Shown one piece after another: positions 7,669-64,000 of a DNA stretch of 64,000 nt (its first letter is position 1; each line of letters begins with the position of its first letter). The position numbers and the translations under genes are program-made. This DNA comes from Klebsiella phage Magnus, in the sequence record NC_049462.1; one strand, given 5' to 3'. The notes under the pieces were generated by a model. The model was not told the DNA's origin. It ran no database searches and was given only the letters and a program-made list of their open reading frames with translations.

Positions 7669-7696
7669 TTAAAATCATTAATGAAGGAGTTTGGTC

Positions 7697-8161: not shown

Positions 8162-8177
8162 CTGGAGTCGCTATATT

Positions 8178-9062: not shown

Positions 9063-9085
9063 GTCATTCCACGTTTCAATATACA

Positions 9086-9108
9086 ACAGAGGCTATAATG
9101 GCCTCTGT
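9086..9108 (+). terminator. Hairpin with loop TATAATG followed by a T-run (terminator with an embedded -10-like hexamer).
   Basis: acagaggc-TATAATG-gcctctgt tttcg. TTCAAT lies 13 nt upstream of TATAAT. The hairpin ends 26 nt before the ATG at 9134. Confidence 0.6.
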
Positions 9109-9133
9109 TTTCGTATTCTAAGAAGAGGATACC

Positions 9134-16204: not shown

Positions 16205-16957
16205 ATGTCTAACAGAACTGGTATTAAACTCAATCCAGAAATCCTTAAATCCCATATCGCGGAAGTTATCTATGAAGACCGCGAAGTGGGAGGGCATCGT
16301 GTTATCACTTGCCATTTGAAAATGGATAACGGATTTGTCGTTTGGGGAAAGGATAGCTCAACATCTATTGACCCCAAAAATTTCGATGAAGAATTGGGCA
16401 AGAAATTGGCATACGATAAGACTTTCTCTCAATTGTGGGAACTGGAAGCATATCGGGCTATGGTTGTCCAAGATTTCATTGGTAAGACAACTGAAGAACC
16501 GTTTATAAAACTTGAAGATTATATTGAAGAAAGTAAGACAATGCAAGTATCCGGTTGGGACTATCGGAATGGTGTAGCCACCGCATATTCTATTAGATCA
16601 ATTAAAAGAAGTAAATTTGGATTGTTGGATTACATCAGCATTTGTCTTTACAAAACTGATAATAAAAAACATGATGATATCAATAATTCGAAAGAAATAC
16701 AGAAAGCAAAGGATTTCATCAGATCTTATATGAATCACACTGAAATTAATAGCCAGTTTGTAATTCATATCGCAAAACTTTGTTGGGCTGCTCGGTCAGC
16801 GGTTGTGGACACTACACCTTCTTGGGAAGATTCTAAAGAAACAGATCGCCAAGATATGTGCGAAACGGTTAAAAAATTACTGTTATCCCCCAGCGATTAT
16901 CAACCAAAAGATAATTTGTTGAAATTGTTTTGGGCGATTGTGTCCCAATTCCGATAA
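16205..16957 (+). CDS. Hypothetical protein. The N-terminal ~110 aa resemble the phage Gp49/Gp66-like family.
   Basis: ITCHLKMDNGFVVWGKDSSTSIDPKNFDEELGKKLAY pattern. AT-rich; C-terminal half unrelated. Confidence 0.4.
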   Translation: MSNRTGIKLNPEILKSHIAEVIYEDREVGGHRVITCHLKMDNGFVVWGKDSSTSIDPKNFDEELGKKLAYDKTFSQLWELEAYRAMVVQDFIGKTTEEPFIKLEDYIEESKTMQVSGWDYRNGVATAYSIRSIKRSKFGLLDYISICLYKTDNKKHDDINNSKEIQKAKDFIRSYMNHTEINSQFVIHIAKLCWAARSAVVDTTPSWEDSKETDRQDMCETVKKLLLSPSDYQPKDNLLKLFWAIVSQFR

Positions 16958-17378: not shown

Positions 17379-17521
17379 GGCGATAATGGATTCCTGTCTA
17401 TTAGATCCCGAGAACGTTCTTGTGGTTGAAATTGAAAACAACAAGCCGTTCATTTTGAAAATGTTGGAGAAGGATAATAATCCTGAAACCAATCCTAAAC
17501 TATCCCAAAAGGGGAATAACG

Positions 17522-19720
17522 ATGATTGAATCATTAGAATTTAAGAATGCCACACAGACGGTTGCTCCTTCCAATCACGTCATCGTCGTTGACATTTCTT
17601 ATTCCATGTGCTATGCGCTGCCGAAACTGCGCCAGCACCTGAAAGAAAACCTGCCCTCTCTGGTTAAGCCGGAAGACACCATCAGTATTCTGTACTTCTC
17701 TTCTCGTGGCGACTTCGGTACTGTGTTCGCTGGGCGCCAGGTCAGAAACGCATCTGACCTGAGTGAGCTGGGCAAACTGATCGATCGCTTCCTGCAACCG
17801 ACGGGCTGCACCGGATTTGTTGAGCCGCTCAAGCTGGCTATCGAAACCGCCAACGATCTGAAAAAGTCCGGCGTCATCAATTCCCTGGTGTTCATGACCG
17901 ACGGCTATGACAACTGCTGGCGTTCCAGTGAAATCCTGGCCGTTGCTGAGCAGCTGCCAAAAGCATACGACAACATCACCCTGATCGAATACGGCTGGAA
18001 CTGCAACCGCGAACTGCTGCAGAAAATGGCTGAGTGCTCTGGTGCAACCCATGTATTCGCCGAAGGCCAGGAAGAATATCAGACCGAACTGGAAACAGCG
18101 ATGGTTTCTGTCGCTCCGCGCGTTCGCGTTGATTTCAGCGTCATCTATTCCTATGCCGTTTATATCGAAAACGGGATTCCGACCATCCTGGCCGCCCAGT
18201 CTGATGAAGACCATCCTATCAATTACGTCAACATCCCTGAGAGCGTCTCTAAGCTGTGGGTTGTTGATCCTGATATGATCGACCAACTGGATAACCTGGC
18301 GGACGTTGAAGCGGCATATGTGCTGGCTCTCTTTGGCGTGCATACTATGGATGCCGACCTGGTGTGGGCCGCGCTGAAAAAGACTGGCGATGTGCGCTTC
18401 ATTAAACAGTACACCAACTGCTTCACCAAGCAGGATTATTCCAACATCAAAACTGACATTACAGCAGCGATTGTAGACCCGGCGCTGCGCGGTGTGGACG
18501 GTATCGATTACAATCTGGTGCCGCCGGAAGACGCAACTACTGTTGTTGATGTTCTGACTTACCTGGCGGGAGCAGACGCACAACTGGTTGTTGACCATCC
18601 CCTGTTCTCTTACAAGCGGATCGGTCGCGGTACGGTACAAAAAGCCGACGATACCGAAGACAAGCTGGCGGCAGAAATTGCCGAAGCCAAATCTAAAGAA
18701 GAGCGTAAAGCGCTGGCCCTGAAACTGGCTGAACACGAAGACTGGACTCCTGTGTTTGAGCCAGTGAAAGGCGCGGGCGTTCCCATCAGCAATCTGGTTT
18801 ACAACTCCGCCCGCCCGAACATCAGTCTGCAGACTGTGCAAAACGGGACCGTCATCATTCCGAAGTTCGCCCAAAAGAAATACGATCTGCCGGAATCTAT
18901 TGACACATGGCAGTGGAAGAACTACACCATCGTCAAAGACGGTATCATCCATATGAAGACCCTTCCTGTGGTCTGCTCGGCTGAAACCGTATCTGAACTG
19001 GTTAGCAAAGGCGTTGAAGTTTACGGCGGGCCGGAAGTGTTCATCGTAAATCTGGGCAGCGTTCCTCTGGTTAACCGCGCGATGGTTAAGAACATCAGCG
19101 CCGCGCAGTTCTTTGCTGACCATGTCCGTCTGGAATCCCTGAAAGCCAAGCAGAAGGTTCTCAAATACTTCCGTGACGAACTGGTTGGGAAAGGTAATGC
19201 CGTGGGCCTGGCGGGCAAATACGGTGCCGAAGCGGCTGAGTTTCTGTCTGCGAATGGCATCCGCGATTACGGCTTCTCTCCGAAGACCGCTTCGGTTGAG
19301 TCTACTGATTTCTACATGAGCCGCGAACTCAATGTGAAGATCAAAGGCGCTTCCTCTCTGCCGTCAATTGCCGCCGTTCTGAAGAAACAGGCAGACAACA
19401 AAAAGCTGAACGCAGCTGATCAGCTGATCGCTAATGCGCTGGCAGAATACAACGCCTTTGTCAAATCTCCGGCGGTGACTGCAGTCCCGGAAGCAACGCA
19501 GGCCAAGATCATTGAATCTTGGATCAGTGACGCTGCCAAGGCCGCAATCACCCAAGTGCGTGAGCTGAACAAGACCCTGTCCAAATCCCTGTATGCCATC
19601 GTTGCTGGCCATGGCTGGTTCACCGACCTGGATCTGGAAGAGTCCACCATGGAAGTGGAAGTTGACGGTGTGAAATACACCGTCAGCGCAGTGCTGGAAG
19701 AGAAAGAGATCAAAATCTAA
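17522..19720 (+). CDS. von Willebrand factor A (vWA) domain protein, 732 aa.
   Basis: MIDAS residues: VVDISYSM (DxSxS) ... PTGCTG ... FMTDGYDN. High-GC codon usage. Long C-terminal region of unknown function. Confidence 0.65.
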   Translation: MIESLEFKNATQTVAPSNHVIVVDISYSMCYALPKLRQHLKENLPSLVKPEDTISILYFSSRGDFGTVFAGRQVRNASDLSELGKLIDRFLQPTGCTGFVEPLKLAIETANDLKKSGVINSLVFMTDGYDNCWRSSEILAVAEQLPKAYDNITLIEYGWNCNRELLQKMAECSGATHVFAEGQEEYQTELETAMVSVAPRVRVDFSVIYSYAVYIENGIPTILAAQSDEDHPINYVNIPESVSKLWVVDPDMIDQLDNLADVEAAYVLALFGVHTMDADLVWAALKKTGDVRFIKQYTNCFTKQDYSNIKTDITAAIVDPALRGVDGIDYNLVPPEDATTVVDVLTYLAGADAQLVVDHPLFSYKRIGRGTVQKADDTEDKLAAEIAEAKSKEERKALALKLAEHEDWTPVFEPVKGAGVPISNLVYNSARPNISLQTVQNGTVIIPKFAQKKYDLPESIDTWQWKNYTIVKDGIIHMKTLPVVCSAETVSELVSKGVEVYGGPEVFIVNLGSVPLVNRAMVKNISAAQFFADHVRLESLKAKQKVLKYFRDELVGKGNAVGLAGKYGAEAAEFLSANGIRDYGFSPKTASVESTDFYMSRELNVKIKGASSLPSIAAVLKKQADNKKLNAADQLIANALAEYNAFVKSPAVTAVPEATQAKIIESWISDAAKAAITQVRELNKTLSKSLYAIVAGHGWFTDLDLEESTMEVEVDGVKYTVSAVLEEKEIKI

Positions 19721-24789: not shown

Positions 24790-25061
24790 GCATGCTATTT
24801 GATGTCTATCTGGTTCATATCGCCGCTAGTCAATCCCAACGTTCTTTCTTCGTGCTGTTGCCAGCAGATAAAGGTATGGGTATTGATGACTTATCTACCC
24901 TGGAGCACCAGTTCTTCCAACGTTGGAAAGACTTGGGGCACCTTGTTAATTTCAACAAATTGACTGATGAGATCGCCGCGCAAGAAAGTGACGGTCTTCG
25001 ACTTCTTTCACGGTCTGAATTACAACTAATCAGGAGTAAACATGAGCAGCCGTATTTTTAA
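24786..25061 (+). CDS. Hypothetical protein.
   Basis: Coupled ATGA overlap. Confidence 0.35.
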   Translation: MSMLFDVYLVHIAASQSQRSFFVLLPADKGMGIDDLSTLEHQFFQRWKDLGHLVNFNKLTDEIAAQESDGLRLLSRSELQLIRSKHEQPYF

Positions 25062-25368
25062 TCTAAAATTCCGCGTTTGGCACGTCCCTCAGGTGCCGGG
25101 GAAAATGTTTACAGTTGAAGTTCCGACGTATGCTGAAGCTGAACGTTTGAAATCGTCGCTGGCTGATTATGATCTGTTCCAGTATCAGAACAACATCAAA
25201 CCAGATTATTGCAACGCCAGCGGTATTCAGATTTATCAACACGACCTAAATGATGCCGAGTTGATCGAAATGGGCCTTGAAGATCGTTGGGTGGATATCG
25301 AGGATGACAAAGATCTGCAGGATTATCTAGATCACCTCCGTTCTACTGGTTGGGAAATAAAATCATGA
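25042..25368 (+). CDS. Hypothetical protein.
   Basis: SD AGGAGT. Confidence 0.4.
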   Translation: MSSRIFNLKFRVWHVPQVPGKMFTVEVPTYAEAERLKSSLADYDLFQYQNNIKPDYCNASGIQIYQHDLNDAELIEMGLEDRWVDIEDDKDLQDYLDHLRSTGWEIKS

Positions 25369-25679
25369 CCATGATCAGTTCATATATCGTTCAAAAGGGT
25401 GATACCCTTATGGGGATCTGTATGAAATTTTATTCAGATCCATACATGTATTCAGATATAGCGAAGTACAACAATATCATTGACCCAAACAAAATTTGCG
25501 TCGGCCAGCTGATTAAATTCCCCCGGCCTGTCAATGACCCACAAACAGTCGTTATCCCGGTAGAACCCACTCAGAAATGTTTGGATGCTATCGCAGGCTT
25601 ATTCCAGGAAGGATTTTGTGATGGTCGTATAGAAAGAGATATTTATGCCGTCATAGTGAGTTCGGCTCTGAACCAATAA
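25365..25679 (+). CDS. LysM domain protein.
   Basis: YIVQKGDTLMGICMKFY...YNNIIDPNKICVGQLIKFP matches the LysM consensus. Confidence 0.6.
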   Translation: MTMISSYIVQKGDTLMGICMKFYSDPYMYSDIAKYNNIIDPNKICVGQLIKFPRPVNDPQTVVIPVEPTQKCLDAIAGLFQEGFCDGRIERDIYAVIVSSALNQ

Positions 25680-25796: not shown

Positions 25797-26075
25797 ATGA
25801 ATCGTCAAGATTTTATCGCACATATCGCCCAAACTCAGGGTGTGACCAAAACCGAAGCTGAAAAAACTGTCGCGTCCTTTATCGCTGGTATCAACTCTGC
25901 CGTCGCTGCTGGCCAATCCGTTCAACTCGTCGGGTTCGGCACCTTCGAAGTGAAACATCAGGAAGCCCGCGCTGGCCGCAACCCGCTGACCGGAGCTGCG
26001 CTGACAATCGAAGCGAAAAATGTCGTCAAATTCAAAGTCGGCGAAACTCTGAAAAACGTCGCCAACGGCAAATAA
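25797..26075 (+). CDS. HU/IHF-family DNA-binding protein.
   Basis: MNRQDFIAHIAQ...VQLVGFGTFEVKHQEARAGRNPLTG...KFKVG: a canonical HU fold signature, 92 aa. Confidence 0.85.
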   Translation: MNRQDFIAHIAQTQGVTKTEAEKTVASFIAGINSAVAAGQSVQLVGFGTFEVKHQEARAGRNPLTGAALTIEAKNVVKFKVGETLKNVANGK

Positions 26076-43382: not shown

Positions 43383-43451
43383 CGGAATTTCCTCGAGTGT
43401 AATTCACTTTCACTTTAAATACCTCTGCAAACATTGCGGAGGTATTTTCTT

Positions 43452-44246
43452 ATGGCCATTTTAAAGATTGGCAGCAAAGGTCTGGAAGTTAAGAATCTTC
43501 AGACCAGTCTCAACAAAATCGGGTTCAATCTGGTTGCCGATGGCATATTTGGTAAAGCGACTGACAACGCCGTCAGGGCAGTTCAGGCGGGTGCCGGACT
43601 CGTCGTTGATGGTATTGCTGGCCCCAAGACCATGTATGCTATACGCAACGCAGGGGAGTCTCATCAGGATCATCTGACTGAGGCTGACTTGATTGACGCT
43701 GCTCGTGAATTGTCTGTTGACCTTGCTAGCATCAAGGCAGTCAACCAAGTAGAATCGCGCGGTACTGGCTTCACCAAGTCTGGAAAGATTAAGACATTGT
43801 TTGAACGCCACATCATGTACAAAAAGCTGAATGCCAAGTTCGGTCAGGCAAAAGCCAATGCTCTGGCCCAGCTTTACCCGACGTTGGTTAACGCCAAAGC
43901 CGGGGGATACACAGGTGGAGACGCGGAGTTGGAACGACTCCATGGTGCAATAGCGATCGATAAAGATTGCGCCTACGAGAGCGCTTCCTACGGGTTATTC
44001 CAGATCATGGGGTTCAACTGTGTTATCTGCGGGTACGCAAATGCTGAGCAGATGTTCAACGACTTTCTCACTGGTGAACGTGCTCAGCTCATGGCATTTG
44101 TCAAGTTCATCAAGGCTGACGCCAATCTGTGGAAAGCATTGAAGGACAAGAATTGGGCTGAGTTTGCTCGGCGTTACAATGGCCCGGCGTATGCACAGAA
44201 CCAGTACGACACCAAGCTGGCTGCAGCATACAAATCATTCAGTTAG
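43452..44246 (+). CDS. Modular endolysin: N-terminal peptidoglycan-binding domain plus C-terminal N-acetylmuramidase (DUF3380-type), like Gp110 of Salmonella phage 10.
   Basis: PG_binding_1-like LQTSLNKIGFNLVADGIFGKATDNAVRAVQ...GIAGPKT. C-terminal GLFQIMGFN and the remaining muramidase region. Confidence 0.75.
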   Translation: MAILKIGSKGLEVKNLQTSLNKIGFNLVADGIFGKATDNAVRAVQAGAGLVVDGIAGPKTMYAIRNAGESHQDHLTEADLIDAARELSVDLASIKAVNQVESRGTGFTKSGKIKTLFERHIMYKKLNAKFGQAKANALAQLYPTLVNAKAGGYTGGDAELERLHGAIAIDKDCAYESASYGLFQIMGFNCVICGYANAEQMFNDFLTGERAQLMAFVKFIKADANLWKALKDKNWAEFARRYNGPAYAQNQYDTKLAAAYKSFS

Positions 44247-45281: not shown

Positions 45282-47564
45282 ATGATTAACGTCATTAAGA
45301 GGGACGGATCTTCTGTCTCCTTTGATATTGAAAAACTACACACCGTCGTTGAACGCGCTTGTGATGGGCTGGACGGGGTTTCAATGTCAGAGGTGATTGC
45401 AGCATCAAAGATCCAATTCACCGATAATATGAGAACCGACCGCATCCAGGATATTCTTATCCAGGCGGCTGCGTCTCTCATCTCTGTAGAAAAGCCGAAC
45501 TATCAGTATGTCGCAGCGCGTCTGAAGTCATACGATCTCCGCAAAATCGCCTATGGCCAGTACAAGCCGCCCCATCTGCTGGATATCTTTGTCAAGAACA
45601 TCAAACTCGGTAAATACGACCGGGAATTCCTGGATCTGTACACCACTGAAGAGTTTGATGAACTTCAGGCCACCATCAACCACAAACGCGATAAGAACTT
45701 CACCTGGGCGGCCATGGGCCAGCTGACTGAGAAGTACCTGTTGCGTGACCGTTCTCAAAAAGACAAGAAAGTCTATTGTGAAACTCCTCAGGTCATGTAT
45801 ATGGCGATTGCTATGGCGCTGTTCTCTAATTGGGACAAGGCCAGCCGCCTGGATATGATCAAAAAGTTCTACAATTATGCCAGCACAGGCAAATTCAGTC
45901 TTCCGACCCCCATCATGGCAGGCGTTCGTACCCCTACCCGTCAGTTCAGTTCATGCGTTCTTATCAAAACTGGCGACACGCTGGATTCCATCAACGCGAC
46001 AGCCAAATCTATCGTAGACTATGTGAGCAAGCGTGCTGGCATCGGTTTCGACGTTGGTGCAATTCGCGGTATCGGCAGTCCTATCCGGGGTGGAGAGATG
46101 GTCCACACTGGTCTGGTGCCATTCATCAAATATCTGACCGGGGCACTGAAGTCGTGCTCTCAGGGCGGTATTCGCGGTGGTGCTGCTACGGCTTATATCC
46201 CGCTGTGGCATTACCAGTTCGACGATGTCGTTGTGTTGAAGAACAACCGTGGTACGGAAGAAAACCGCGAGCGCCGTATCGACTATGGTATTCAGATCAA
46301 CCGCGTCATGTTTGAACGTCTGGTCAACAAACAACCTCTGTATTTGTTCGATCCGAAAGACAACATGGATATGTACGAGGCATATTTCAGCGACGTGGAT
46401 CAATTCCGTACTCTGTACGACAACATGATCAAAGCAGCAGACGCCGGGTTATGTCGAGCCAAGACACTCCAGGCTGAAGAAGTATTCCAGATGTTGCTGG
46501 ATCAGCGTTCCGATACCGGGCGCATTTACATCGCATTCGTTGATCACATGAACATGTATAGCCCGTTCAACCTCGACACGATTTACAGCTCGAATTTATG
46601 TCTGGAAATCGCGCTGCCGACTCGTGAGTTCCAACAATACGATGATGAAAGTGGTCGTATCGCTCTGTGTACTCTGGCATCATTCAACCTGACGGCGTTT
46701 GATGAGCCGACGGAAATGGAAGATGTGGCATTCGTATTAGTGTCCGCGCTGGACATGCTCCTCGAATATCAAGATTACCCGGCCCGCCAAGCCCGCCTGG
46801 CTGTTCAGGAATATCGTCCCCTGGGTATCGGTGTTGTCAACGTCGCTCACTTCCTGGCGCGGAACTTCACCGGATATGGTTCGCCCGCCGGGTTACAGTT
46901 GATCGATGAATGGATGGCACATCTTCACTATTATCTGGTTAAGGCATCCAACAAGCTGGCAGAAATGTTTGGCCCGTGTGGTAAAGAAACAATCCATTCA
47001 AGCGGTATGGTAACAGCTGACCTGGCCCCTCTGCCACTGGACATCCTCCCTAATGGCAAAAAGCCTGTTGGGGACGCATACGGTCTGGATTGGGATGGGT
47101 TAAAAAACAGGCTCGCCAAATTTGGTATCCGCAATGCTACCCTGTTGGCGATAGCCCCTACCGAAAGCTCCTCGCAGGTGCTGAATGCCACCAATGGGAT
47201 TGAGCCGCCGAAAGGCTTGGTGAGCATTAAGGCAAGCAAGGACGGCATCTACAAGCAAATCGTGCCGGATGTCGAAACCCTTGGGCCTATCTATGATCTC
47301 AAGTGGAACATGGAATGTATCGACTATCTGAAGACGGCGGCGGTGTTCCAGCGCTGGGTTGACCAATCTATCAGTACCAATACCTTCTATGATCCAGAGA
47401 AGTTCCCGGGAGGCAAGATCCCCCGCGCCAAGATGATGCAGGATATCCTTTCCTTCTATATGTGGGGAGGCAAGACTCTGTACTACAACACAAACAAAGA
47501 CTCCAAGGAAGATGAAGAGTTGAAAGCAGCAGAAGACCCCGGCTGCGATTCGTGCATCGTGTAA
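45282..47564 (+). CDS. nrdA: Ribonucleoside-diphosphate reductase alpha subunit (class Ia NrdA).
   Basis: ATP cone VIKRDGSSVSFDIEKL. Active-site NLCLEIALPT. C-terminal CDSCIV Cys pair. 760 aa. Confidence 0.95.
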   Translation: MINVIKRDGSSVSFDIEKLHTVVERACDGLDGVSMSEVIAASKIQFTDNMRTDRIQDILIQAAASLISVEKPNYQYVAARLKSYDLRKIAYGQYKPPHLLDIFVKNIKLGKYDREFLDLYTTEEFDELQATINHKRDKNFTWAAMGQLTEKYLLRDRSQKDKKVYCETPQVMYMAIAMALFSNWDKASRLDMIKKFYNYASTGKFSLPTPIMAGVRTPTRQFSSCVLIKTGDTLDSINATAKSIVDYVSKRAGIGFDVGAIRGIGSPIRGGEMVHTGLVPFIKYLTGALKSCSQGGIRGGAATAYIPLWHYQFDDVVVLKNNRGTEENRERRIDYGIQINRVMFERLVNKQPLYLFDPKDNMDMYEAYFSDVDQFRTLYDNMIKAADAGLCRAKTLQAEEVFQMLLDQRSDTGRIYIAFVDHMNMYSPFNLDTIYSSNLCLEIALPTREFQQYDDESGRIALCTLASFNLTAFDEPTEMEDVAFVLVSALDMLLEYQDYPARQARLAVQEYRPLGIGVVNVAHFLARNFTGYGSPAGLQLIDEWMAHLHYYLVKASNKLAEMFGPCGKETIHSSGMVTADLAPLPLDILPNGKKPVGDAYGLDWDGLKNRLAKFGIRNATLLAIAPTESSSQVLNATNGIEPPKGLVSIKASKDGIYKQIVPDVETLGPIYDLKWNMECIDYLKTAAVFQRWVDQSISTNTFYDPEKFPGGKIPRAKMMQDILSFYMWGGKTLYYNTNKDSKEDEELKAAEDPGCDSCIV

Positions 47565-47638
47565 GTTAGGTCTATATCTCACTGTGTTATATTATCAGGG
47601 GTGGAGCAATTCACCCCATTATCCATCAGGAAAGAATT

Positions 47639-48742
47639 ATGTCTGAACAAAAGCAATTTTCCGTTTTCGACCCGACATCGAATAACCAGGGACTCCCGTT
47701 CTTTGGTGATCCGGTATCAATCCAGCGTTATGACGTTGTTGCTTGGCCGTTTGTACAGAAGTGGTATGAAAAAGGCCTCAGCCAATTTTGGCGCCCGGAA
47801 GAAGTAGACATCACCAAAGACAAGGCGGATTTTGCCACTCTAAGCGATGGTGAAAAGCATATCTATTTCTCCAACCTGAAACGGCAGACCATGCTGGACT
47901 CTATCCAGGGCGCGGCCCCGTTTGAAGCATTCGGTGCCTGGGCTTCTACCCCGGAGGCGCAGTTCGCTATCCTGGAATGGACCCGCCAAGAGGCAATTCA
48001 CTCTCTGTCCTACACCCATATCCTACGCAACACGGTCAATGACCCTGGTATCGTGTTTGACCATGTGCTGGATGTTGCTGAGATCGTAGATTGTGCACAC
48101 CAAATCAGCACCTGCTACGATGAATCTGTGCGCTGGGCGGGTATGCGTATGGCGGGCCGGATCTTCACCCGTGAAGATATCATGAATGCCAAGCGGTCAT
48201 TCTGGCGATCCCTGTTTGCTGCCAACACGCTGGAAGGCATCCGCTTCTACGTTTCGTTTGCATGCTCCTGGGCATTCGTCCAATTCCTTCAAAAGATGGA
48301 AGGTAATGCGAAGATCATTCGCCAGATCGCCCGCGACGAGCAGGACCACCTGATCCTCACGCAGACATTCCTGAACCGTCTTCCGTTGATGGATCCGGAC
48401 TTTGCTGCCATTCGTGAAGAACTTCGTGCTGAGATGACGCAGATGTTCATGGATGTCGTGAATCAGGAAAAACAGTGGGCTGACTATCTGTTCAAAGAAG
48501 GTTCTATCCTGGGCTTGAACGCCAAGATCCTTCACCAGATGGTTGACTGGCTGGCGACCCACCGCATGGGTGCTATCGGCCATCCGTATCCTGGGGAACC
48601 GCGCAAAGACAATCCGGTGCCGTGGATTAACGACTGGCTAGATAATACTACAATGCAATACGCATTGCAGGAAGCAGAAGCTCCTGATTATCTGATGGGC
48701 ATACTGACTGGTTCAGTATCTGACGGTCTTAAATTTGCATAA
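47639..48742 (+). CDS. nrdB: Ribonucleoside-diphosphate reductase beta subunit (NrdB).
   Basis: Diiron/tyrosyl-radical region QEAIHSLSYTHIL; ferritin-like helices. 367 aa. Confidence 0.9.
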   Translation: MSEQKQFSVFDPTSNNQGLPFFGDPVSIQRYDVVAWPFVQKWYEKGLSQFWRPEEVDITKDKADFATLSDGEKHIYFSNLKRQTMLDSIQGAAPFEAFGAWASTPEAQFAILEWTRQEAIHSLSYTHILRNTVNDPGIVFDHVLDVAEIVDCAHQISTCYDESVRWAGMRMAGRIFTREDIMNAKRSFWRSLFAANTLEGIRFYVSFACSWAFVQFLQKMEGNAKIIRQIARDEQDHLILTQTFLNRLPLMDPDFAAIREELRAEMTQMFMDVVNQEKQWADYLFKEGSILGLNAKILHQMVDWLATHRMGAIGHPYPGEPRKDNPVPWINDWLDNTTMQYALQEAEAPDYLMGILTGSVSDGLKFA

Positions 48743-48751
48743 AGGTGAGAA

Positions 48752-48976
48752 ATGATTACGATCTATTCCAAACAAGGTTGTGCACAGTGTGTTACAGCTG
48801 AGAACATCTGTCGCATTCGCGGTATTGAGCATCGTATACTCAAACTTGAAAAGGACTACAAGTTGGAAGATCTACAAGCTCTGACGGGTAAGCAGCGCAT
48901 GTCTATGCCTGTAATCGTTCTCTCTGACCAGACTGTGACCGACGTTGCTGGTCTCGCCGCAAGCGTTAAACGCTGA
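48752..48976 (+). CDS. Glutaredoxin/NrdH-like redoxin.
   Basis: ITIYSKQGCAQCVTAE (CxxC). 74 aa, immediately downstream of nrdB. Confidence 0.7.
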   Translation: MITIYSKQGCAQCVTAENICRIRGIEHRILKLEKDYKLEDLQALTGKQRMSMPVIVLSDQTVTDVAGLAASVKR

Positions 48977-48983
48977 TCGTGAC

Positions 48984-49010
48984 AAGCCCCCAAAAGGGGG
49001 CTTTACTTTT
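48984..49010 (+). terminator. Rho-independent terminator.
   Basis: aagccccc-aaaa-gggggctt tacttttg. Confidence 0.75.
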
Positions 49011-49069
49011 GAAAAAGCCAGACCTATACTTCCTGTACATACCAAATATTGAATAGCAGGAACTACATC

Positions 49070-49525
49070 ATGTCGAACATCATCTTACGCAATCCCGGTC
49101 ATCATTTTGGATACATCCAACTCCCGTTGGTCATCGACACTTTATACCCTGAAGACAAAGAACAGATTTGTTGGTCTCCAGCGGCCCTCATTGAACGAGA
49201 GATATTCAAATCAGAAGTGGATGTCATGTACCGGTTTGGGGAAACGGGCAAATTGCAATATATGGGCAAGGCCACCGAGTTGCGAACCACCAGAGAACAA
49301 AGATTTCTTCGTATTGATACGACAAATTGCGAATTCTTTGTTCTTCTGAAGGAATATGTGACACGGAATCGCCCGGTTTCCCAGCACCGCCCGTTCTTGT
49401 CAAGTGTGCATATTGACAACTTTATCTCTGATGTTCACCTTGTGGCTTCTACTCTTCACGATGAAGAAACTGGTGTACCAAAGGACACAGTCTTAAATAT
49501 GGTTGTGATCACATTAGTGGAGTAA
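49070..49525 (+). CDS. Hypothetical protein.
   Basis: ORF; the ATG at 49070 follows AGGA. Confidence 0.4.
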   Translation: MSNIILRNPGHHFGYIQLPLVIDTLYPEDKEQICWSPAALIEREIFKSEVDVMYRFGETGKLQYMGKATELRTTREQRFLRIDTTNCEFFVLLKEYVTRNRPVSQHRPFLSSVHIDNFISDVHLVASTLHDEETGVPKDTVLNMVVITLVE

Positions 49526-49531
49526 GCCGCT

Positions 49532-49900
49532 ATGAGCGATTTAGTCTTGAATACCCAATTCCGTCTTCCTGTGGATTCTCTTGTCCCGTTTCAAATCATG
49601 AAACAGATGCTTGAAGAAGGCATGGAAGTTCCGTTAAAACATAATGGACAAGATATCGGGCGCTGTATGAGTTGCTCATTTCAGGATGATGCGTATTGGG
49701 CAATGGACTATAATGCTCAAATGCCAATTGAGGCTAACACACTCATGGAATTGGGTTTCATTTTCAAATTAAAACCACCAATCCGTTTATACGATATCAA
49801 GCCTGTAGTAATACAGATACCTGCTGGCAAATCAACTTACATGTACTTGATATCGCATTTTATGTTTTATGACGTTGCGCCGTCAGTTGGTCCGTTGTAA
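49532..49900 (+). CDS. Hypothetical protein.
   Basis: ORF with SD GGAG. Confidence 0.4.
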   Translation: MSDLVLNTQFRLPVDSLVPFQIMKQMLEEGMEVPLKHNGQDIGRCMSCSFQDDAYWAMDYNAQMPIEANTLMELGFIFKLKPPIRLYDIKPVVIQIPAGKSTYMYLISHFMFYDVAPSVGPL

Positions 49901-50326: not shown

Positions 50327-51949
50327 TTATTGGCTGGAACCAAAATTACCGCCATTGTCTTCCAGTTCTGGTTTGATATCGATAGTGCCCGGCCCTGTCG
50401 GTGACGCTGGGGTCGCACCACTAAGAGAACTGGCCCGGCCCGCGCCTTCGGCATATTTGATATTACCGTCGATGGTCTGGGCTACCGTCAATTTGTCAGC
50501 GATGATCTCGGACACGAGGATCTTAGGAACCTTCAACGTACCTGACACTTCTAACATCTGACAAACGATACGGAAAATATTCTGCGCCTGGATTTCGGCA
50601 AGCTGAGAATATTTCATCAAAGATGTCCCGGCAACTACGTGTGAATGATTGCTGGAATGAAGATGATAAACTTCGCCTGTCTTGCGCTGAACTTCCGTCC
50701 CACCAACGGTCAGGTTATGGTCGCGACCGACGTAATACCTTTTGTCGAACATCGCAATATCATAGTGGTCTTTTACTGATTTATTGACCACGTCACCGTT
50801 CGGTAACATTTGTTTATAGGAACCTGACTGGTGCATCCAATGAAGACGCTCACCGCCGGGCGTATCATCAACTTCCATAATATGTCCAGAACGGGAAGCC
50901 ATAACATTGTTGTACGGATATACTGAGCCGCCAGCGGATGGAACAATAGTTTCGCCTGTGTTATCGATATCCTGTACGCGACCAGATGGTGGTGGTGTCT
51001 GCTGTACTTTTGGAGTACGATCAGGAATAGGCTCAGACCATTTTCCATTCTGTTGCGCCGGGGATGCAGCAACTGTATTAGCCGGGCCGGGCCAACGATA
51101 ACCCAAAACTGAAGAACGGCTGAAACGGCTGACCTTCACACTGTCAGATTGGTTGCCCCCAAGGCACCACACATAATTCGCATCAAACTTCTGAACAAAC
51201 GCCACATGCCCAAAAGTCGGGTTGTTCCCTCGACGGAAAACGACCACTGCCCCATAACGGGGTTCAGACAAAGGAGAACCCCATTGAAGATATGAACGGG
51301 CCAAAGCAGATCGTGTAGATGTGAATCCAGCCTGGAGGAGAACCCAACCAACGAATGCAGCACACCAACTCACTTCGTCTTCAGATGCTCCAAGAGAAGT
51401 GGTTTTGTGATATTCTACAATCCTTGGGTTGTTGTTGAATTTACCAGCATATTCCTTCACACCCAATTCGCCTCGAGCGACAGTCATCCATTTTTCAGGA
51501 TCATACCCATCTTTGGGCGGCTCTGGGTCAGGTTGAGGTTCGTCTTCTATTTTTACAGGAACATCTGTAACAGCATTATATTTTTGACGTTCAATAGACT
51601 GCACAACCTGGCCGAGAGCCAACGGGTTGGTGTCAGAACCATTAACCTGGTTGGCTGCTGGCCACACCCACGCTATTCTCAAATTCTGGTATGCTTCGTC
51701 AAGGGCGAACCCCATGACTTCACTGTTGACAGTAATACCAGTCGGAGACCAGCCTAAACCTGCCGAGGACGCATTTGTTGCAGGCATCATGAGCACAGCC
51801 CATGGTAACAGCTCAGTAGGCAGGAGAGTAGTGTCTTGGGTGTGTACGCCGTATACACGGACGGCAACGCGCCCGTTTTCTTCGGGATCATTCACGTCTT
51901 CAACGCGCCCATAAAACCAACGCATATTTTCTAACATAGTGATGTCCAA
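50327..51949 (-). CDS. 5: Baseplate hub / cell-puncturing protein gp5-like with a CHAP peptidoglycan-hydrolase domain (TTG start per the ORF track).
   Basis: N-terminal gp5/VgrG OB-fold signature FYGRVEDVNDPEENGRVAVRVYGVH. CHAP domain Cys/His (VSWCAAFVGW ... FGHVAFV). C-terminal beta-strand-rich region. Confidence 0.7.
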   Translation of the reverse strand: MDITMLENMRWFYGRVEDVNDPEENGRVAVRVYGVHTQDTTLLPTELLPWAVLMMPATNASSAGLGWSPTGITVNSEVMGFALDEAYQNLRIAWVWPAANQVNGSDTNPLALGQVVQSIERQKYNAVTDVPVKIEDEPQPDPEPPKDGYDPEKWMTVARGELGVKEYAGKFNNNPRIVEYHKTTSLGASEDEVSWCAAFVGWVLLQAGFTSTRSALARSYLQWGSPLSEPRYGAVVVFRRGNNPTFGHVAFVQKFDANYVWCLGGNQSDSVKVSRFSRSSVLGYRWPGPANTVAASPAQQNGKWSEPIPDRTPKVQQTPPPSGRVQDIDNTGETIVPSAGGSVYPYNNVMASRSGHIMEVDDTPGGERLHWMHQSGSYKQMLPNGDVVNKSVKDHYDIAMFDKRYYVGRDHNLTVGGTEVQRKTGEVYHLHSSNHSHVVAGTSLMKYSQLAEIQAQNIFRIVCQMLEVSGTLKVPKILVSEIIADKLTVAQTIDGNIKYAEGAGRASSLSGATPASPTGPGTIDIKPELEDNGGNFGSSQ

Positions 51950-60985: not shown

Positions 60986-61122
60986 AGGGTTGTGAAGAAA
61001 GTTTGTTATCTGAACATTCTTTTTATAGAAAGTGGTTTACAATCTTCAAAACTACAGTATAGTTGAAAACAAGCGAAACGGCTTTGTCAGCCGACCGATT
61101 TACAACATATAGGATCTACACT

Positions 61123-62034
61123 ATGTCTTACATTCTCCATATTGAGTCCGGCCTGAAATTTGATATTGAAGGTAAAACTGCGTCTGACGTCCAGTCCGAA
61201 ATCAAAGACGCTGGTCTGCTGATCGGTAACGTAACCATCCGCCGTATGCTTGACGGCGTCCTGCAAAGTGCCAACGGGTTTGAGCTGATCGATTCCCTGT
61301 CTCAAGAAGAGCAGGAAGAAACCCTGGAGGCTCTCGACCGTGCGAAGGCCGAAGAAGTCCAGCCGACTGACGTTGCTGGCGTGAAAGAAGGCGCTGGCGC
61401 TGCCACTCCGGTTATTGACGCCAAAGAAACCGTTGACCAGCCGGAAGCGGAACAAACTGCAAACTCCGAAGAATCTACGGAAACTGCTGAACAGGCTGAC
61501 CCGCAGGAAGTAGAAGCTGTGGCAAACGCAGATGAAGTCCGCCGCCGTATCCTGGGCACTAACGTGGCAGAAGCGCTGGCCGAAGGTGGCAATGCCGCCG
61601 AAGACGCTTCCCTGGCCGCGAAATCTAAGCTGACCAACCTGACCCCGGCAGTTGCGCCGGAAGATCGCAAACGTCGCCATAACAAACGCGAAGAAATGGT
61701 TGAAGCCGCACGTTCTTCCAATTTCGGCGCGATCCTGGCAGCAGTAGAAGCAGGCGTCATTCCGGGTGTTTACCTGAGCTATGTCAATCCGGATATGCGC
61801 TGGTTCCAGTTCCCGGTCACCGACCTGGCTGATAAAGAAAACCCGCATGCGCGGACTAACACCTACGTCGATCTGGCGCCGATCACTTCCGGCGGCTGGG
61901 GTTTCAGTCTGTACGTGAAAGGTAAATCTTTCACCAAACGCCAGAAAATCAAAGAGACCGATGCGGAATCTCTGGTTAAAGCGATCAATGAATGGTTGCC
62001 GGGCGCTCTGGAAGAAGCCAAAAACGCAGGCTGA
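61123..62034 (+). CDS. Hypothetical acidic Ala/Glu-rich protein (ATG at 61123).
   Basis: High-GC, low-complexity acidic middle region (EEVQPTDVAGVKEGAGAATPV...). Could be scaffold or internal-protein-like. Confidence 0.4.
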   Translation: MSYILHIESGLKFDIEGKTASDVQSEIKDAGLLIGNVTIRRMLDGVLQSANGFELIDSLSQEEQEETLEALDRAKAEEVQPTDVAGVKEGAGAATPVIDAKETVDQPEAEQTANSEESTETAEQADPQEVEAVANADEVRRRILGTNVAEALAEGGNAAEDASLAAKSKLTNLTPAVAPEDRKRRHNKREEMVEAARSSNFGAILAAVEAGVIPGVYLSYVNPDMRWFQFPVTDLADKENPHARTNTYVDLAPITSGGWGFSLYVKGKSFTKRQKIKETDAESLVKAINEWLPGALEEAKNAG

Positions 62035-62062
62035 TTTTAAATCAGATTCCGTTCAATAGACG

Positions 62063-62089
62063 AAGGGGCTGCTATAATAGCAGCCTCTT
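62063..62089 (+). terminator. Hairpin with loop TATAATA.
   Basis: aaggggctgc-TATAATA-gcagcctctt ttg. TTCAAT lies 15 nt upstream of TATAAT. Ends 20 nt before the ATG at 62109. Confidence 0.6.
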
Positions 62090-62108
62090 TTGTTTATTGG
62101 GGCTTTGT

Positions 62109-62771
62109 ATGTCTTATACGATCAAAGGTCTGTTGAAAAGACCTGTCCATTTGTTCCATAAACCGCCTGCCGTTGTCGGGGAATACCCGGCAAGAGGAGA
62201 GCTTTATTATGTCAAAGGCTCCAACGGTAGTGGCAAGTCTACCGTTCCGTCCTGGATGGCGGAGAATGATCCTCAGGCATATGTCGTGACCCACAATGGT
62301 AAGGTGATGCTGACCGTTTGCCCATCATTTAATATCATCTGTGTTGGTAAGTACGACAAATCGAAATCCAAAGGGGTTGACTCTCTAAAAGACACAGAAC
62401 AGATGCTATTCGCTGTGTCTATCACCGAGCAACCTGAATACATCGGGTATGATGTGATCTTTGAAGGTATTATCCCTGCTACTTTGCTCAATACGTGGAT
62501 TGAACGTCTAAACCGCCCGACCCGCCGCCTTGTGGTTCTGTTCTTGGATACCCCCAAGGAAGTATGCCTGGCACGTGTGAGTTCTCGCAATGGTGGTGAA
62601 GACTTCAAACACGAACTCGTCCTGGAGAAATGGAAGCGTGTCAACTCTCACCGAGAGCGGCATAAAGAGTTGTTCCCTAACATTCCTGCGGGTATGATGA
62701 AGTCTAATGGTCTGACCGTTGATCAGGCCGTATCTGCGTTTCTCAATCGTGATTTTGGGAGTATTGATTGA
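62109..62771 (+). CDS. P-loop kinase, candidate 5-hydroxymethyluracil DNA kinase (5-HMUDK-like) or other polynucleotide/nucleotide kinase.
   Basis: Walker A YYVKGSNGSGKST. About 220 aa. Immediately upstream of, and coupled to, the TS-family gene. Confidence 0.45.
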   Translation: MSYTIKGLLKRPVHLFHKPPAVVGEYPARGELYYVKGSNGSGKSTVPSWMAENDPQAYVVTHNGKVMLTVCPSFNIICVGKYDKSKSKGVDSLKDTEQMLFAVSITEQPEYIGYDVIFEGIIPATLLNTWIERLNRPTRRLVVLFLDTPKEVCLARVSSRNGGEDFKHELVLEKWKRVNSHRERHKELFPNIPAGMMKSNGLTVDQAVSAFLNRDFGSID

Positions 62772-63814
62772 TGGAAATTTTTGCTTTAAACAACAACGAC
62801 ATGCTGAAGAAAGCTGTCCTGGCTATTCGTGAACATGGGATTGAGTCTGATCCCGGTAATGCGGAGATTAATACTGATGGCACCCGGTTTCTTGATGGCG
62901 TGACCATAACCGTCTCGGACATCCGTGACCGCTGGCTTTCCGTTGAAGGTCGCAATTCTTCTGCGCTGGCTGCTATTGGCGAGACCTTCTGGGTTCTGTC
63001 AGGCCGCAATGACATCCGTTTCCTTTCCCGAGTACTCCCCCGCGCGGCCAACTTCTCTGACGATGGTGTAACCTGGCGCGGCGCGTATGGCCCACGCCTG
63101 TACAATCACGGGCAGCTGGATAGCGTTATCAGCCGTCTACGCAAGAATCCAAATACCCGCCAGGCGTATCTGACAATCTACGACCCGGCGCTGGACTCTG
63201 ATGAAGGTTTGGCTGCTCATAATGAAACAGGCGAAGCCAAGACCAAGGACATGATCTGTAATCTGGCTCTTTTGTTCTCTATTACAAACGGCTGTCTGAA
63301 CATGACTGTCATCAACCGTAGCCAGGATGTTCTTTGGGGAATGTCTTCGATTAACTTCATTGAATTCTCTATTCTTCAAGAAGTGATCGCTAATGTTTTG
63401 GGCGTTAATGTCGGCCAGTACAAGTTGTTCTCCAACAATCTTCATTACTACAACAATGAAGTAAGTCGTAAACAGCTTGGTGGTATCACCTGGAAAACAC
63501 AAACTTCTACTGGAGGCCTGGTGTGTTCTTTGCTGTCTTTCAATCGTGACAAAGTAAAGAACCAGAACGACATCCGCAACCTGTTCCTGGGCGTCCTACA
63601 CCATTGCGATATCGGAAGCGACTTTGGTGAAGTCCGGGAGCATCTTTCTCAGTTTGATGCTGACAAAGGGCTTATGCTAGATATGGCTTATTGTCTATGG
63701 TGTCGCCTAAACGATTCGAAGATCGATAAACGCAGCATTGCTGATGACGGTTTACGGACAGCATTAATGCATTCTTCGGTTGATCGGAAATATATTTGGG
63801 GACAAGGCGAATGA
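62771..63814 (+). CDS. Thymidylate-synthase-family enzyme, probably a dUMP hydroxymethylase (alternatively a divergent thymidylate synthase).
   Basis: DMICNLALLFSITNGCLNMTVINRSQDVLWGMSSINFIEFSIL aligns with the TS active-site region [41 protein letters not shown]: catalytic Cys, the RS(A/Q)D motif, and Asn conserved. RQAYLTIYDP corresponds to RRIIVSAWNP. Confidence 0.75.
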   Translation: MEIFALNNNDMLKKAVLAIREHGIESDPGNAEINTDGTRFLDGVTITVSDIRDRWLSVEGRNSSALAAIGETFWVLSGRNDIRFLSRVLPRAANFSDDGVTWRGAYGPRLYNHGQLDSVISRLRKNPNTRQAYLTIYDPALDSDEGLAAHNETGEAKTKDMICNLALLFSITNGCLNMTVINRSQDVLWGMSSINFIEFSILQEVIANVLGVNVGQYKLFSNNLHYYNNEVSRKQLGGITWKTQTSTGGLVCSLLSFNRDKVKNQNDIRNLFLGVLHHCDIGSDFGEVREHLSQFDADKGLMLDMAYCLWCRLNDSKIDKRSIADDGLRTALMHSSVDRKYIWGQGE

Positions 63815-64000
63815 TGTATCCTAATCTTGAATTTTTCACGGGGCGCAAGCGCTCCGGTAAGGACTTCTGCCTGGAGTCCATTATTGAAGCAGACCGGGGT
63901 ATCCGTGTCGTTCATCGTCTTTCTTTCTCTGATGAGTTGCGCCGGGTGGCCAATTACATTTACCCTTGGCTCCCGGTTGACGTAGATGATTCCATCAAGG
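63811..64000 (+). CDS. 1: dNMP kinase (T4 gp1-like), 5' part; runs off the window end.
   Basis: FFTGRKRSGKDFCLESIIEADRG aligns with T4 gp1 FLSGVKRSGKDTTADFIMSNYSA. ATGA overlap with the upstream gene. Confidence 0.65.
   Translation, partial: MMYPNLEFFTGRKRSGKDFCLESIIEADRGIRVVHRLSFSDELRRVANYIYPWLPVDVDDSIK

Follow-up and report, generated by a model that had tools for sequence, protein, structure and literature searches.

A predicted ViI-type thymidine hypermodification module in a Klebsiella Taipeivirus

Results

The window, i.e. the whole 64,000-nucleotide stretch of DNA analysed here, comes from a phage of the genus Taipeivirus (Ackermannviridae) with a Klebsiella host. Between 61000 and 64000 its DNA is 98-99% identical to that of the Klebsiella Taipeivirus phages Menlow, UPM 2146, Zahir and others. 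The window ends in three co-directional open reading frames (62109-62771, 62771-63814 and from 63811, or 63814, onward), whose family matches bear out the initial annotation of a P-loop kinase, a thymidylate synthase (TS)-family hydroxymethylase and a dNMP kinase at 62109-64000. Coupling on both sides of the TS-like gene had been proposed as well, and stop and start codons indeed overlap at both junctions: the TGA stop of the kinase gene (62769-71) shares its A with the ATG of the hydroxymethylase gene (62771-73), and the TGA stop of the latter (63812-14) overlaps the ATG of the dNMP kinase gene (63811-13) within the tetranucleotide ATGA. These overlapping codons, and only these, suggest that the genes form an operon. 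The order kinase, hydroxymethylase, dNMP kinase, NTP pyrophosphatase, hypothetical protein and UvsX is common to ViI, Menlow and Zahir, the hypothetical protein being ACT-like where tested. The same kinase-to-UvsX order is found in a Vibrio phage at just 38-46% identity.

Assignment to a ViI-like phage agrees with the taxonomy and with the orthology of the kinase and the hydroxymethylase to ViI proteins. The three proteins that had been cited in its favour, an HU-like protein, an endolysin and a CHAP-gp5 protein, were all recovered, the last as a hub protein combining Gp5_OB and CHAP domains (Table 1).

Table 1. Features of the window and pathway homologues in the nearest relative, Menlow.
Feature	Position	Strand	Basis
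MazG-like nucleotide pyrophosphatase, adjoining the Pplase1 gene	8178-9062	+	phrog_2144, E 2.6e-121
aGPT-Pplase clade 1 paralogue, ViI gp160 orthologue	9134-10363	+	71% identity; PF18723, E 3.9e-80
HU-like protein	25797-26075		PF00216, E 4e-30
Muramidase endolysin	43434-44246		PG_binding + PF11860
Hub protein	50330-51949	-	Gp5_OB + CHAP
GC-rich hairpin with T-run (terminator-like), loop TATAAT	62062-62090	+	13 pairs in terminator scan
5-hydroxymethyl-dU DNA kinase (5-HMUDK; activity predicted), 220 aa, ViI gp67 orthologue	62109-62771	+	PF18748; 80% identity
Walker A/P-loop GSNGSGKST, residues 37-45	62217-62243	+	translation; identical in ViI gp67
TS-superfamily dUMP 5-hydroxymethylase (predicted), 347 aa	62771-63814	+	PF00303; 87% identity to ViI Vi01_060c
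Catalytic Cys163 codon TGT	63257-63259	+	aligns with E. coli ThyA Cys146; invariant alignment column
Asn195 codon AAC	63353-63355	+	aligns with ThyA Asn177; T4 dCMP hydroxymethylase has Asp179 here
dNMP kinase (predicted), N-terminal 63 codons, cut by window end (188-189 aa in relatives)	63811-64000	+	phrog_139
gp247 homologue (Menlow)			85% identity; PF18724 ADDT
gp243 homologue (Menlow)			72% identity; PF18747
gp226 homologue (Menlow)			88% identity; PALP

The strong terminator-like hairpin precedes the kinase start by 19 nt. Its sequence is nearly invariant between the window and ViI while the flanks differ, and the Menlow annotation places a terminator at the corresponding site. Scanning for sigma-70-type promoters gave no convincing candidate from the hairpin up to the start of the kinase gene. 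A longer kinase frame of 259 aa from 61992, used by some pipelines, was rejected in favour of the 220-aa form because it crosses the hairpin, because ViI gp67 itself has 220 aa and because the Pfam match begins at residue 14 of the 220-aa form.

The 220-aa protein matches Pfam PF18748 (HMUDK_HMUD1) with an E-value of 8.1e-106 and 352.3 bits (cut-off 27) over the full length of the profile (positions 1-196 of 196), and aligns with ViI gp67 (YP_004327432) over all 220 aa without gaps. The ViI protein phosphorylates 5-hmdU in DNA, and gp67 and gp243 make 5-PmdU from hmdU-DNA (PMC8989533). By contrast, dTMP-kinase models match the 220-aa protein only at E 0.005-0.02, below the model thresholds, and a PDB sequence search returned P-loop noise alone (E 0.02 or worse). 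The protein had been proposed as a 5-HMUDK with the P-loop GSNGSGKST, and its PF18748 match and 80% identity identify it as the gp67 orthologue, a 5-hmdU DNA kinase whose activity here is predicted from homology. Its gene adjoins that of the TS-family hydroxymethylase, with overlapping codons, and an aGPT-Pplase1 gene lies in the same window. Adjacency of the kinase and the hydroxymethylase had been taken as a hallmark of hmdU phages, and the same arrangement of 5-HMUDK and dU-hmt has already been described as characteristic (PMC5889632, Fig. 2 legend).

In database records the kinase is named 'terminase small subunit', 'polynucleotide kinase' or 'hypothetical protein', and the hydroxymethylase 'thymidylate synthase' (GenBank, RefSeq).

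The 347-aa protein matches Pfam PF00303 (Thymidylat_synt) with an E-value of 1.7e-14 and 54.1 bits (cut-off 24.3), and phrog_3676 at E 2e-182. It had been described as a strongly diverged TS that keeps the catalytic Cys and the uracil-specifying Asn. Both residues are retained (Table 1), and the protein shares 17% identity with ThyA of E. coli and 20% with a T4-like td. At the position of Asn195 the corresponding residue in the MilA alignment is Asp. Together with Cys163 and Asn195, the protein keeps Glu71, Tyr106, Arg130, Arg183, Ser184, Asp186, His225 and Tyr227. The proposed N-terminal extension did not hold, as the N-terminus exceeds that of ThyA by only about 8 residues and is no longer than those of other phage hydroxymethylases. 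The extra length resides in about 13 aa inserted internally (residues ~142-158) and in a C-terminal non-TS region of about 115 aa after Tyr227; the PF00303 match stops at profile position 216 of 266 and 115 unrelated aa follow.

To distinguish a hydroxymethylase from a true ThyA, the initial annotation had called for an alignment of the two types. In our alignment of ThyA with the ViI protein and the enzymes of the SPO1-like Bacillus phage CampHawk (representing the SPO1 gp29 type) and the M6-like Pseudomonas phage PAE1 (representing the M6/YuA type), three features of ThyA are absent from the 347-aa protein or replaced in it. The W80-D-E-W83 segment reads A92-A-N-F95, His147 is replaced by Asn164, a change common to other phage dUMP hydroxymethylases, and the tail that closes over the cofactor in ThyA is missing. 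The counterpart of the phosphate-binding Arg21 of ThyA is Gly29 here and Gly also in ViI, while other phage hydroxymethylases have Arg, although an insertion close by makes the alignment uncertain at this point.

The closer relationship to the hydroxymethylases is further supported by similarity searches. The CampHawk and PAE1 enzymes are 33-35% identical to the 347-aa protein (E 1e-33 to 1e-36), and the SPO1-like and M6-like phage enzymes score 116-123 bits compared to 52 bits for the T4-like td. The features shared with CampHawk and PAE1 against true TS are Cys-Asn in place of Cys-His and an F/Y-S-D-D-G segment in place of W-D-E-W; an Asp at the position of ThyA Leu143 and a long non-TS C-terminal region are also shared. 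The ViI-type enzyme differs from both in the Gly at the Arg21 equivalent, the extra acidic insertion (~142-158) and an unrelated C-terminal domain. Among solved structures the best match is the CMP 5-hydroxymethylase MilA (E 5e-18), compared to 2e-7 for the best thymidylate synthase. The protein fails all six matched NCBIfam thymidylate-synthase equivalogs, with a best score of 56 bits against cut-offs of 108-405 bits. The 347-aa protein groups with the enzymes of hmU-containing phages and not with true thymidylate synthases.

T4 dCMP hydroxymethylase gp42 and Streptomyces MilA belong to the same superfamily and share the proposed chemistry, hydration of an exocyclic methylene. Their substrates are cytosine nucleotides and their base-discriminating residue is Asp, whereas the window protein has Asn195, as in uracil-specific enzymes. 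BLASTP gave no match between the 347-aa protein and T4 gp42 at E up to 10. The ViI orthologue has been named dUMP hydroxymethyltransferase by Lee et al. (PMC5889632), and a literature search found no direct enzymology of the ViI-type TS homologue. The hydroxymethylase activity of this type is predicted from homology and from the known hmdU intermediate.

The third gene, proposed as a dNMP kinase, matches phrog_139 (dNMP kinase) over 62 aa with an E-value of 3e-13, and the portion inside the window shares 71% identity with ViI Vi01_059c. Its P-loop reads TGRKRSGKD. Direct tblastn gave no T4-like phage match at E 1e-3, and the PDB none at E 1 or below; the likeness to T4 gp1 emerged from comparison with a profile of homologues, in which hhalign returned a probability of 94% and an E-value of 1.5e-7 over just 39 columns. 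In BLASTP the P-loop matches that of T4 gp1 at E 0.005. The window holds 63 of the ~188 codons. Both proteins share the unusual P-loop G-x-K-R-S-G-K-D and a Y-I-V-x-D-x-R segment, but T4 gp1 has 241 aa compared to 188 aa for the window type, and the likeness is very distant. We regard the frame from 63811 as a putative, distant T4 gp1-like dNMP kinase.

The remaining pathway enzymes had been expected beyond 64000 or among the genes at 8-13 kb, and this proved correct in part. In three relatives the region past 64000 encodes the remainder of the dNMP kinase followed by a dUTPase_2-type NTP pyrophosphatase, an ACT-like (ACT_phage) protein, UvsX and a helicase; the expectation thus stands for the nucleotide-pool genes (dNMP kinase and NTP-PPase) but not for DNA-level hypermodification enzymes, which were not found just beyond 64000 in these relatives. 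At 8-13 kb the window contains the clade 1 aGPT-Pplase, a member of the ViI-type pathway gene set; its orthologue gp160 was among the five ViI proteins in the reconstitution (PMC5889632). The adjoining MazG-like protein is 67% identical to ViI Vi01_131c and has no Pfam match. It is a possible dNTP-pool enzyme, and we infer its link to the pathway only tentatively.

Searches with ViI gp226, gp243 and gp247 gave no tblastn match within the 64-kb window. Their homologues map to 7.3-18.7 kb of Menlow, outside the window, which is why the serine:DNA transferase, the second kinase and the PLP decarboxylase of this phage are not visible here. Pplase2/ADDT is seen only in the near-identical relatives. 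Of Klebsiella phage records, 43 contain the transferase, exactly as many as contain the region described here.

Discussion

The closest characterized system is the 5-NeOmdU pathway of Salmonella phage ViI (Kuttervirus), comprising gp67, Vi01_060c, Vi01_059c (dnk), gp160, gp226, gp243 and gp247 (Lee et al. 2018 PNAS; Lee et al. 2021 NAR). ViI has the same gene order and overlaps as the window. The kinases are 80% identical, the hydroxymethylases 87%, the dNMP kinases 71-75% and the Pplase1 proteins 71%, and all five reconstitution genes are also present in near-identical relatives of the window phage. The two phages differ in genus and host, and at the sequence level we see no functional difference between them. 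The Klebsiella Taipeivirus phages Menlow, UPM2146 and Zahir carry effectively the same genes with strain-level sequence differences only. Published data extend the likeness, in place of a sequence comparison, to two further phages: 5-NeOmdU replaces 16.4% of dT in the Taipeivirus phiHS2, a phage of E. coli HS, as determined by LC-MS (bioRxiv 10.64898/2026.05.19.726188), and Klebsiella phage 0507-KN2-1 is among the listed ViI-like 5-HMUDK phages (PMC5889632). The level of substitution in the Taipeivirus is lower than that in ViI, about 40% of dT. Taken together, we consider the trio to be the core of a ViI-type thymidine hypermodification pathway in a Klebsiella Taipeivirus, with a probability of roughly 93%.

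In the proposed pathway the TS-like enzyme, acting through its catalytic Cys163 with methylene-tetrahydrofolate, would attach a one-carbon unit to dUMP, and water instead of hydride would resolve the exocyclic methylene to yield 5-hmdUMP. By analogy to SPO1, PhiW-14 and ViI, the dNMP kinase would convert this product to 5-hmdUDP and a host NDP kinase would form 5-hmdUTP, while the phage dCMP deaminase and the dUTPase-type NTP pyrophosphatase, whose gene lies shortly after the window end, may shape the nucleotide pool. The phage polymerase would then place 5-hmdU into DNA instead of T. After replication the 220-aa kinase would phosphorylate hmdU in DNA at its 5-hydroxymethyl group with the γ-phosphate of ATP to form 5-PmdU, a step demonstrated for the 80%-identical gp67 (PMC8989533). 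An amino-acid:DNA transferase of the gp247 type would replace the phosphate by serine via the side-chain oxygen, and a PLP decarboxylase of the gp226 type would subsequently generate 5-(2-aminoethoxy)methyl-dU (5-NeOmdU). The gp247-type and gp226-type activities have been shown in ViI, and both genes occur in the near-identical relatives, outside the window. Leftover hmdU would be converted to ordinary thymine, and the modified DNA would be resistant to many restriction enzymes.

Could the TS-like protein instead be a genuine thymidylate synthase making dTMP, next to an ordinary nucleotide kinase? The GenBank and RefSeq annotations say so for the TS-like protein, which retains the catalytic Cys, the Asn and most of the residues that bind dUMP, and 60-84% of the thymine in the virion DNA of relatives is still ordinary. 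This is nevertheless very unlikely given the failed curated equivalogs (56 bits against 108-405), the missing W80-D-E-W83 segment and C-terminal tail, the His147 to Asn exchange typical of phage dUMP hydroxymethylases, and a hydroxymethylase, MilA, as the best PDB match. It is further opposed by the measurement of 5-NeOmdU in both ViI and a Taipeivirus, and no DHFR is annotated in the 150 kb of ViI inspected, on either side of 100-107 kb. An ordinary kinase is hard to reconcile with a PF18748 match at E 8e-106 compared to sub-threshold dTMP-kinase matches.

RefSeq and PHROG 800 name the 220-aa protein as a small terminase subunit, and phrog_800 ('terminase small subunit') does match it at E 1.9e-64, with several records bearing the same label. 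However, a separate small terminase gene lies directly upstream of the large terminase gene, both in Menlow (46770-47456 beside 47437-49653) and in ViI (Vi01_162c/161c). The 220-aa protein is also a PF18748 P-loop kinase whose ViI orthologue has demonstrated hmdU-DNA kinase activity, and its gene is located among nucleotide-metabolism genes. The label appears to be a propagated annotation, and we attach practically no probability to a terminase function. A different final base, arising from another amino-acid donor or from a halt at O-serinyl-thymidine, is conceivable with ViI-type pathway genes, as the transferase and decarboxylase of this phage lie outside the window and in other phages the clade 2 transferases work with glycine, putrescine or diaminopropane. 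Such an outcome is highly improbable, however, since the nearest relatives (98-99% DNA identity here) carry a transferase 85% and a PLP enzyme 88% identical to those of ViI, and 5-NeOmdU has been detected by MS/MS in a Taipeivirus (bioRxiv 10.64898/2026.05.19.726188).

Within the ViI-type pathway, the route by which hmdU that escapes hypermodification becomes thymine (60-84% of positions in ViI-like phages) is a matter of speculation. Either the clade 1 aGPT-Pplase at 9134-10363 might carry out this conversion together with the second kinase outside the window, or the ViI-type TS homologue, uniquely lacking an Arg21 equivalent, might make both dTMP and hmdUMP; we hold these readings to be unlikely.

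The pathway, the gene neighbourhood and the product have already been published for ViI-like phages, and nothing at this locus is new. The module can nonetheless aid annotation, as public records of Klebsiella phages that are therapeutic candidates mislabel the DNA kinase and the hydroxymethylase. Its recognition predicts that the DNA of such phages would partly resist restriction enzymes and might also resist certain host defences and sequencing chemistries.

Three overlapping genes form the locus

The region 62109-64000 is taken up by three co-directional ORFs. The TGA stop of the first (62769-62771) has one base in common with the next ATG, and the ATG of the third overlaps the TGA of the second as ATGA, in agreement with the overlaps noted at both junctions in the initial annotation. 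A terminator-like hairpin with TATAAT as its loop sequence precedes the kinase gene; it is almost unchanged between the window and Salmonella phage ViI, the reference for the pathway, while its flanks have diverged. No sigma-70-type promoter was found between hairpin and kinase gene. The hairpin may serve as terminator and phage promoter in one, or as an attenuator, and the three-gene string, if an operon, may be transcribed through read-through or from a promoter specific to the phage. The gene directly upstream, which ends at the hairpin, encodes an Ala/Glu-rich protein; its ViI counterpart, Vi01_062c, likewise immediately precedes the kinase gene.

Features of the window and of related phage records
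Feature	Sequence	Position	Strand	Details
MazG-like pyrophosphatase	window	8178-9062	+	adjoins Pplase1 gene
Pplase1 (aGPT-Pplase clade 1), orthologue of ViI gp160	window	9134-10363	+	71% identity; PF18723, E 3.9e-80
676-aa ORF	window	10701-12731	+	phrog_1735; no Pfam match
Ribose-phosphate pyrophosphokinase-like	window	13237-14091	+	phrog_619, E 6e-91
Nicotinamide phosphoribosyltransferase-like	window	14088-15740	+	phrog_448, E 3.5e-194
Superinfection-exclusion gp17-like	window	25042-25368	+	PF17420, E 2e-43
Small LysM-domain protein	window	25350-25679	+	
HU-family protein	window	25797-26075		PF00216, E 3.7e-30
Endolysin	window	43434-44246		PG_binding_1 + PF11860 muramidase
CHAP-gp5 hub protein	window	50330-51949	-	Gp5_OB + CHAP
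303-aa protein	window	61123-62034	+	phrog_3905, E 4e-157; no Pfam match
Terminator-like hairpin	window	62062-62090	+	13-bp stem + T-run; 19 nt upstream of kinase start
ORF 1, 5-HMUDK	window	62109-62771	+	220 aa
ORF 2, TS-like protein	window	62771-63814	+	347 aa
ORF 3, dNMP kinase homologue	window	63811-	+	runs past window end
gp247 homologue	Menlow	7273-8490		85%; PF18724 ADDT
gp243 homologue	Menlow	9076-9960		72%; PF18747 HMUD2
gp226 homologue	Menlow	17487-18722		88%; PALP
'Phage ACT-like domain' protein	Zahir (L001)	15929-16447		172 aa; PF24021, E 2e-79

The first gene encodes a predicted 5-hmdU DNA kinase

Residues 37-45 of the 220-aa protein form a Walker A motif, GSNGSGKST, and the protein matches Pfam PF18748 (HMUDK_HMUD1, '5-hmdU DNA kinase') over the full profile (352 bits, threshold 27 bits; E 8.1e-106); generic nucleotide-kinase models score under threshold. 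The profile match and a gapless alignment with ViI YP_004327432 (gp67) at 80% identity corroborate the proposal that the P-loop protein is a 5-hmdU DNA kinase (5-HMUDK). According to Lee et al. 2021 (PMC8989533), DNA-borne 5-hmdU is turned into the 5-phosphomethyl nucleotide by each of ViI gp67, ViI gp243, M6 gp54, PhiW-14 gp37 and SP10 gp186, with the ATP gamma-phosphate passing to the DNA.

RefSeq and PHROG 800 label the protein 'terminase small subunit', and public records also name it 'polynucleotide kinase' or 'hypothetical protein'. Because Menlow, a close relative, and ViI each have a separate small terminase subunit directly upstream of the large one, the first label appears to be a propagated misnomer. 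Some pipelines begin the gene 39 codons early (61992), across the hairpin.

The second gene product resembles hydroxymethylases of hmU phages

The TS-like protein, a predicted dUMP 5-hydroxymethylase, is 87% identical to ViI Vi01_060c. It scores 54 bits with the Pfam thymidylate-synthase model (threshold 24.3), a match limited to residues 65-232 (profile positions 52-216 of 266). A true thymidylate synthase is nevertheless argued against by several lines of evidence. Across six matched NCBIfam thymidylate-synthase equivalog models the protein reaches at most 56 bits, compared to cut-offs of 108-405 bits. In the PDB its top matches are two entries of the CMP 5-hydroxymethylase MilA (E 5e-18), with the best thymidylate synthase at E 2e-7 and E. 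coli ThyA at E ~0.01. Homologues in related Vibrio phages are ~40% identical; outside these and the Ackermannviridae, the nearest phage relatives are from hmU-type phages and include Pseudomonas M6/YuA-like phages (PAE1, 33%, E 5e-29), SPO1-like Bacillus phages (CampHawk, 35%, E 2e-26) and a Bordetella phage whose enzyme is listed as a deoxyuridylate hydroxymethyltransferase. T4-like thymidylate synthases (td) align at 23% (E ~1e-4), and local BLASTP yields 123 and 116 bits for the M6-like and SPO1-like enzymes versus 52 for T4-like td.

Residues were compared with E. coli ThyA in an L-INS-i alignment. The nucleophile Cys146 corresponds to Cys163, and Glu58, Tyr94, Arg126, Arg166, Ser167, Asp169, Asn177, His207 and Tyr209 are kept as Glu71, Tyr106, Arg130, Arg183, Ser184, Asp186, Asn195, His225 and Tyr227, upholding the claim that the catalytic Cys and uracil-specifying Asn are retained. 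T4 dCMP hydroxymethylase and MilA have Asp at the position of Asn195, and Asn here fits a uracil substrate. In contrast, W80-D-E-W83 of ThyA is replaced by A92-A-N-F95, His147 by Asn164 and Leu143 by Asp160, and the C-terminal tail is swapped for an unrelated ~115-aa region. Cys-Asn, F/Y-S-D-D-G and Asp160 are common to the TS-like protein and the SPO1-like, M6-like and Vibrio enzymes. In thymidylate synthase the Trp80/82 region and the C-terminus screen the exocyclic methylene and hold the cofactor in place to transfer hydride, and an enzyme that admits water attack instead would be expected to have lost them.

The described N-terminal extension was not confirmed: the N-terminus is ~8 residues longer than that of ThyA, comparable to other phage hydroxymethylases, and the additional residues lie inside the protein and at its C-terminus. 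In the column of the phosphate-binding Arg21, where an adjacent insertion makes the alignment uncertain, the window and ViI have Gly (Gly29, 62855-62857), while the Vibrio, M6-like and SPO1-like hydroxymethylases have Arg and T4 gp42 has Lys. Arg39, in the 9-residue insertion that follows Gly29, might stand in for the Arg21 equivalent.

A conserved nucleotide-pool module

The 62-63 codons of ORF 3 inside the window match phrog_139 (dNMP kinase, E 3e-13) and share 71% identity with the beginning of ViI Vi01_059c ('dnk'). Full-length searches used the 188-aa protein of the relative Zahir, which found no match in Pfam, NCBIfam or PDB, nor by tblastn in T4-like phages. In pairwise BLASTP against T4 gp1 the two P-loops, LEFFTGRKRSGKD and LIFLSGVKRSGKD, align (E 0.005), as does a second, collinear segment, and hhalign of a five-sequence profile gives 94% probability (E 1.5e-7) over 39 columns only. 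A 'T4 gp1-type' kinase is thus a distant but plausible assignment.

Past 64000 the gene order, taken from Zahir, K5lambda5, Menlow and ViI, is identical in all four. The dNMP kinase is completed first; then come a ~184-aa NTP pyrophosphatase from the dUTPase_2 family (PF08761, E 5e-7; phrog_173), a ~172-aa protein (PF24021 'ACT_phage'), UvsX, a small ORF and the replicative helicase. Vibrio phage K447 keeps this order although its proteins are just 38-46% identical, and the block is therefore a conserved nucleotide-pool module. The ACT-like gene of Zahir, ~2.1 kb past the window end, is flanked by the genes for the dUTPase-type pyrophosphatase and UvsX; its place is taken in ViI by a similar-size gene (40-42% identical) and in the Vibrio phage by one compared by size and position only. 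Since ACT domains usually bind small ligands, this protein may regulate the module.

Genes for hypermodification at the DNA level are scattered

The remaining pathway genes had been anticipated just past 64000 or at 8-13 kb. One paralogue, Pplase1, does lie at 8-13 kb; none comes immediately after 64000. The ViI serine:DNA transferase gp247, second kinase gp243 and PLP decarboxylase gp226 have no match within the window, and their homologues are found in Menlow. The transferase occurs in 43 Klebsiella phage records, equal to the number with the kinase region.

Directly downstream of Pplase1 lies the 676-aa ORF, with a 491-aa ORF at the syntenic place in ViI. The overlapping pyrophosphokinase-like and phosphoribosyltransferase-like genes resemble, as a pair, the counter-defence genes Adps/Namat (NARP1), with which phages reconstitute NAD+; neither product is annotated among the ViI genes flanking gp160.

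Proposed pathway

Joining the sequence evidence to the published pathway (PMC8989533; PMC5889632), we infer that every step takes place in the window phage itself. Homology and classical hmU-phage work suggest that dUMP would be supplied by dCMP deaminase, converted to 5-hmdUMP by the TS homologue and raised to 5-hmdUTP by the dNMP kinase of the phage together with the NDP kinase of the host, with competitors cleared by dTTP- and dUTP-degrading enzymes; the phage polymerase would then put in hmdU for T. 5-HMUDK would phosphorylate the hydroxymethyl group, and a clade 2 aGPT-Pplase would form a covalent Cys-C6 adduct, expelling the phosphate, whereupon a serine hydroxyl would attack the exocyclic methylene to give O-serinyl-thymidine. 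Decarboxylation by the PLP enzyme would yield 5-(2-aminoethoxy)methyl-dU (5-NeOmdU). Phosphorylation, serine transfer and decarboxylation have been shown biochemically with ViI proteins (PMC8989533; PMC5889632). Remaining hmdU would be converted to thymine.

Phage identity and relation to published work

Megablast with 61000-64000 matched 269 phage records, the best being Klebsiella phages cp16, KP6F1, Menlow, Zahir and UPM 2146 (98.5-98.9% identity over the entire query). These belong to the Ackermannviridae, genus Taipeivirus, and the window phage is therefore ViI-like, as proposed. The HU-family protein, endolysin and CHAP-gp5 protein were likewise recovered. Just upstream of the HU-like gene lie the gp17-like gene and, after it, the LysM-domain gene.

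Klebsiella phage 0507-KN2-1, the Taipeivirus type, has been named among ViI-like phages with 5-HMUDK, which co-associates with dUMP hydroxymethyltransferase, and 5-NeOmdU was predicted for this group (Lee et al. 2018, PMC5889632). A 2024 review describes the modification genes as conserved throughout Ackermannviridae, and a 2026 preprint reports 5-NeOmdU at 16.4% of dT in Taipeivirus phiHS2 by HPLC-MS/MS, together with a phiHS2-ViI gene comparison (bioRxiv 10.64898/2026.05.19.726188). Thus, the hypermodification locus and its product are already known, and the remaining value of the locus lies in annotation correction.
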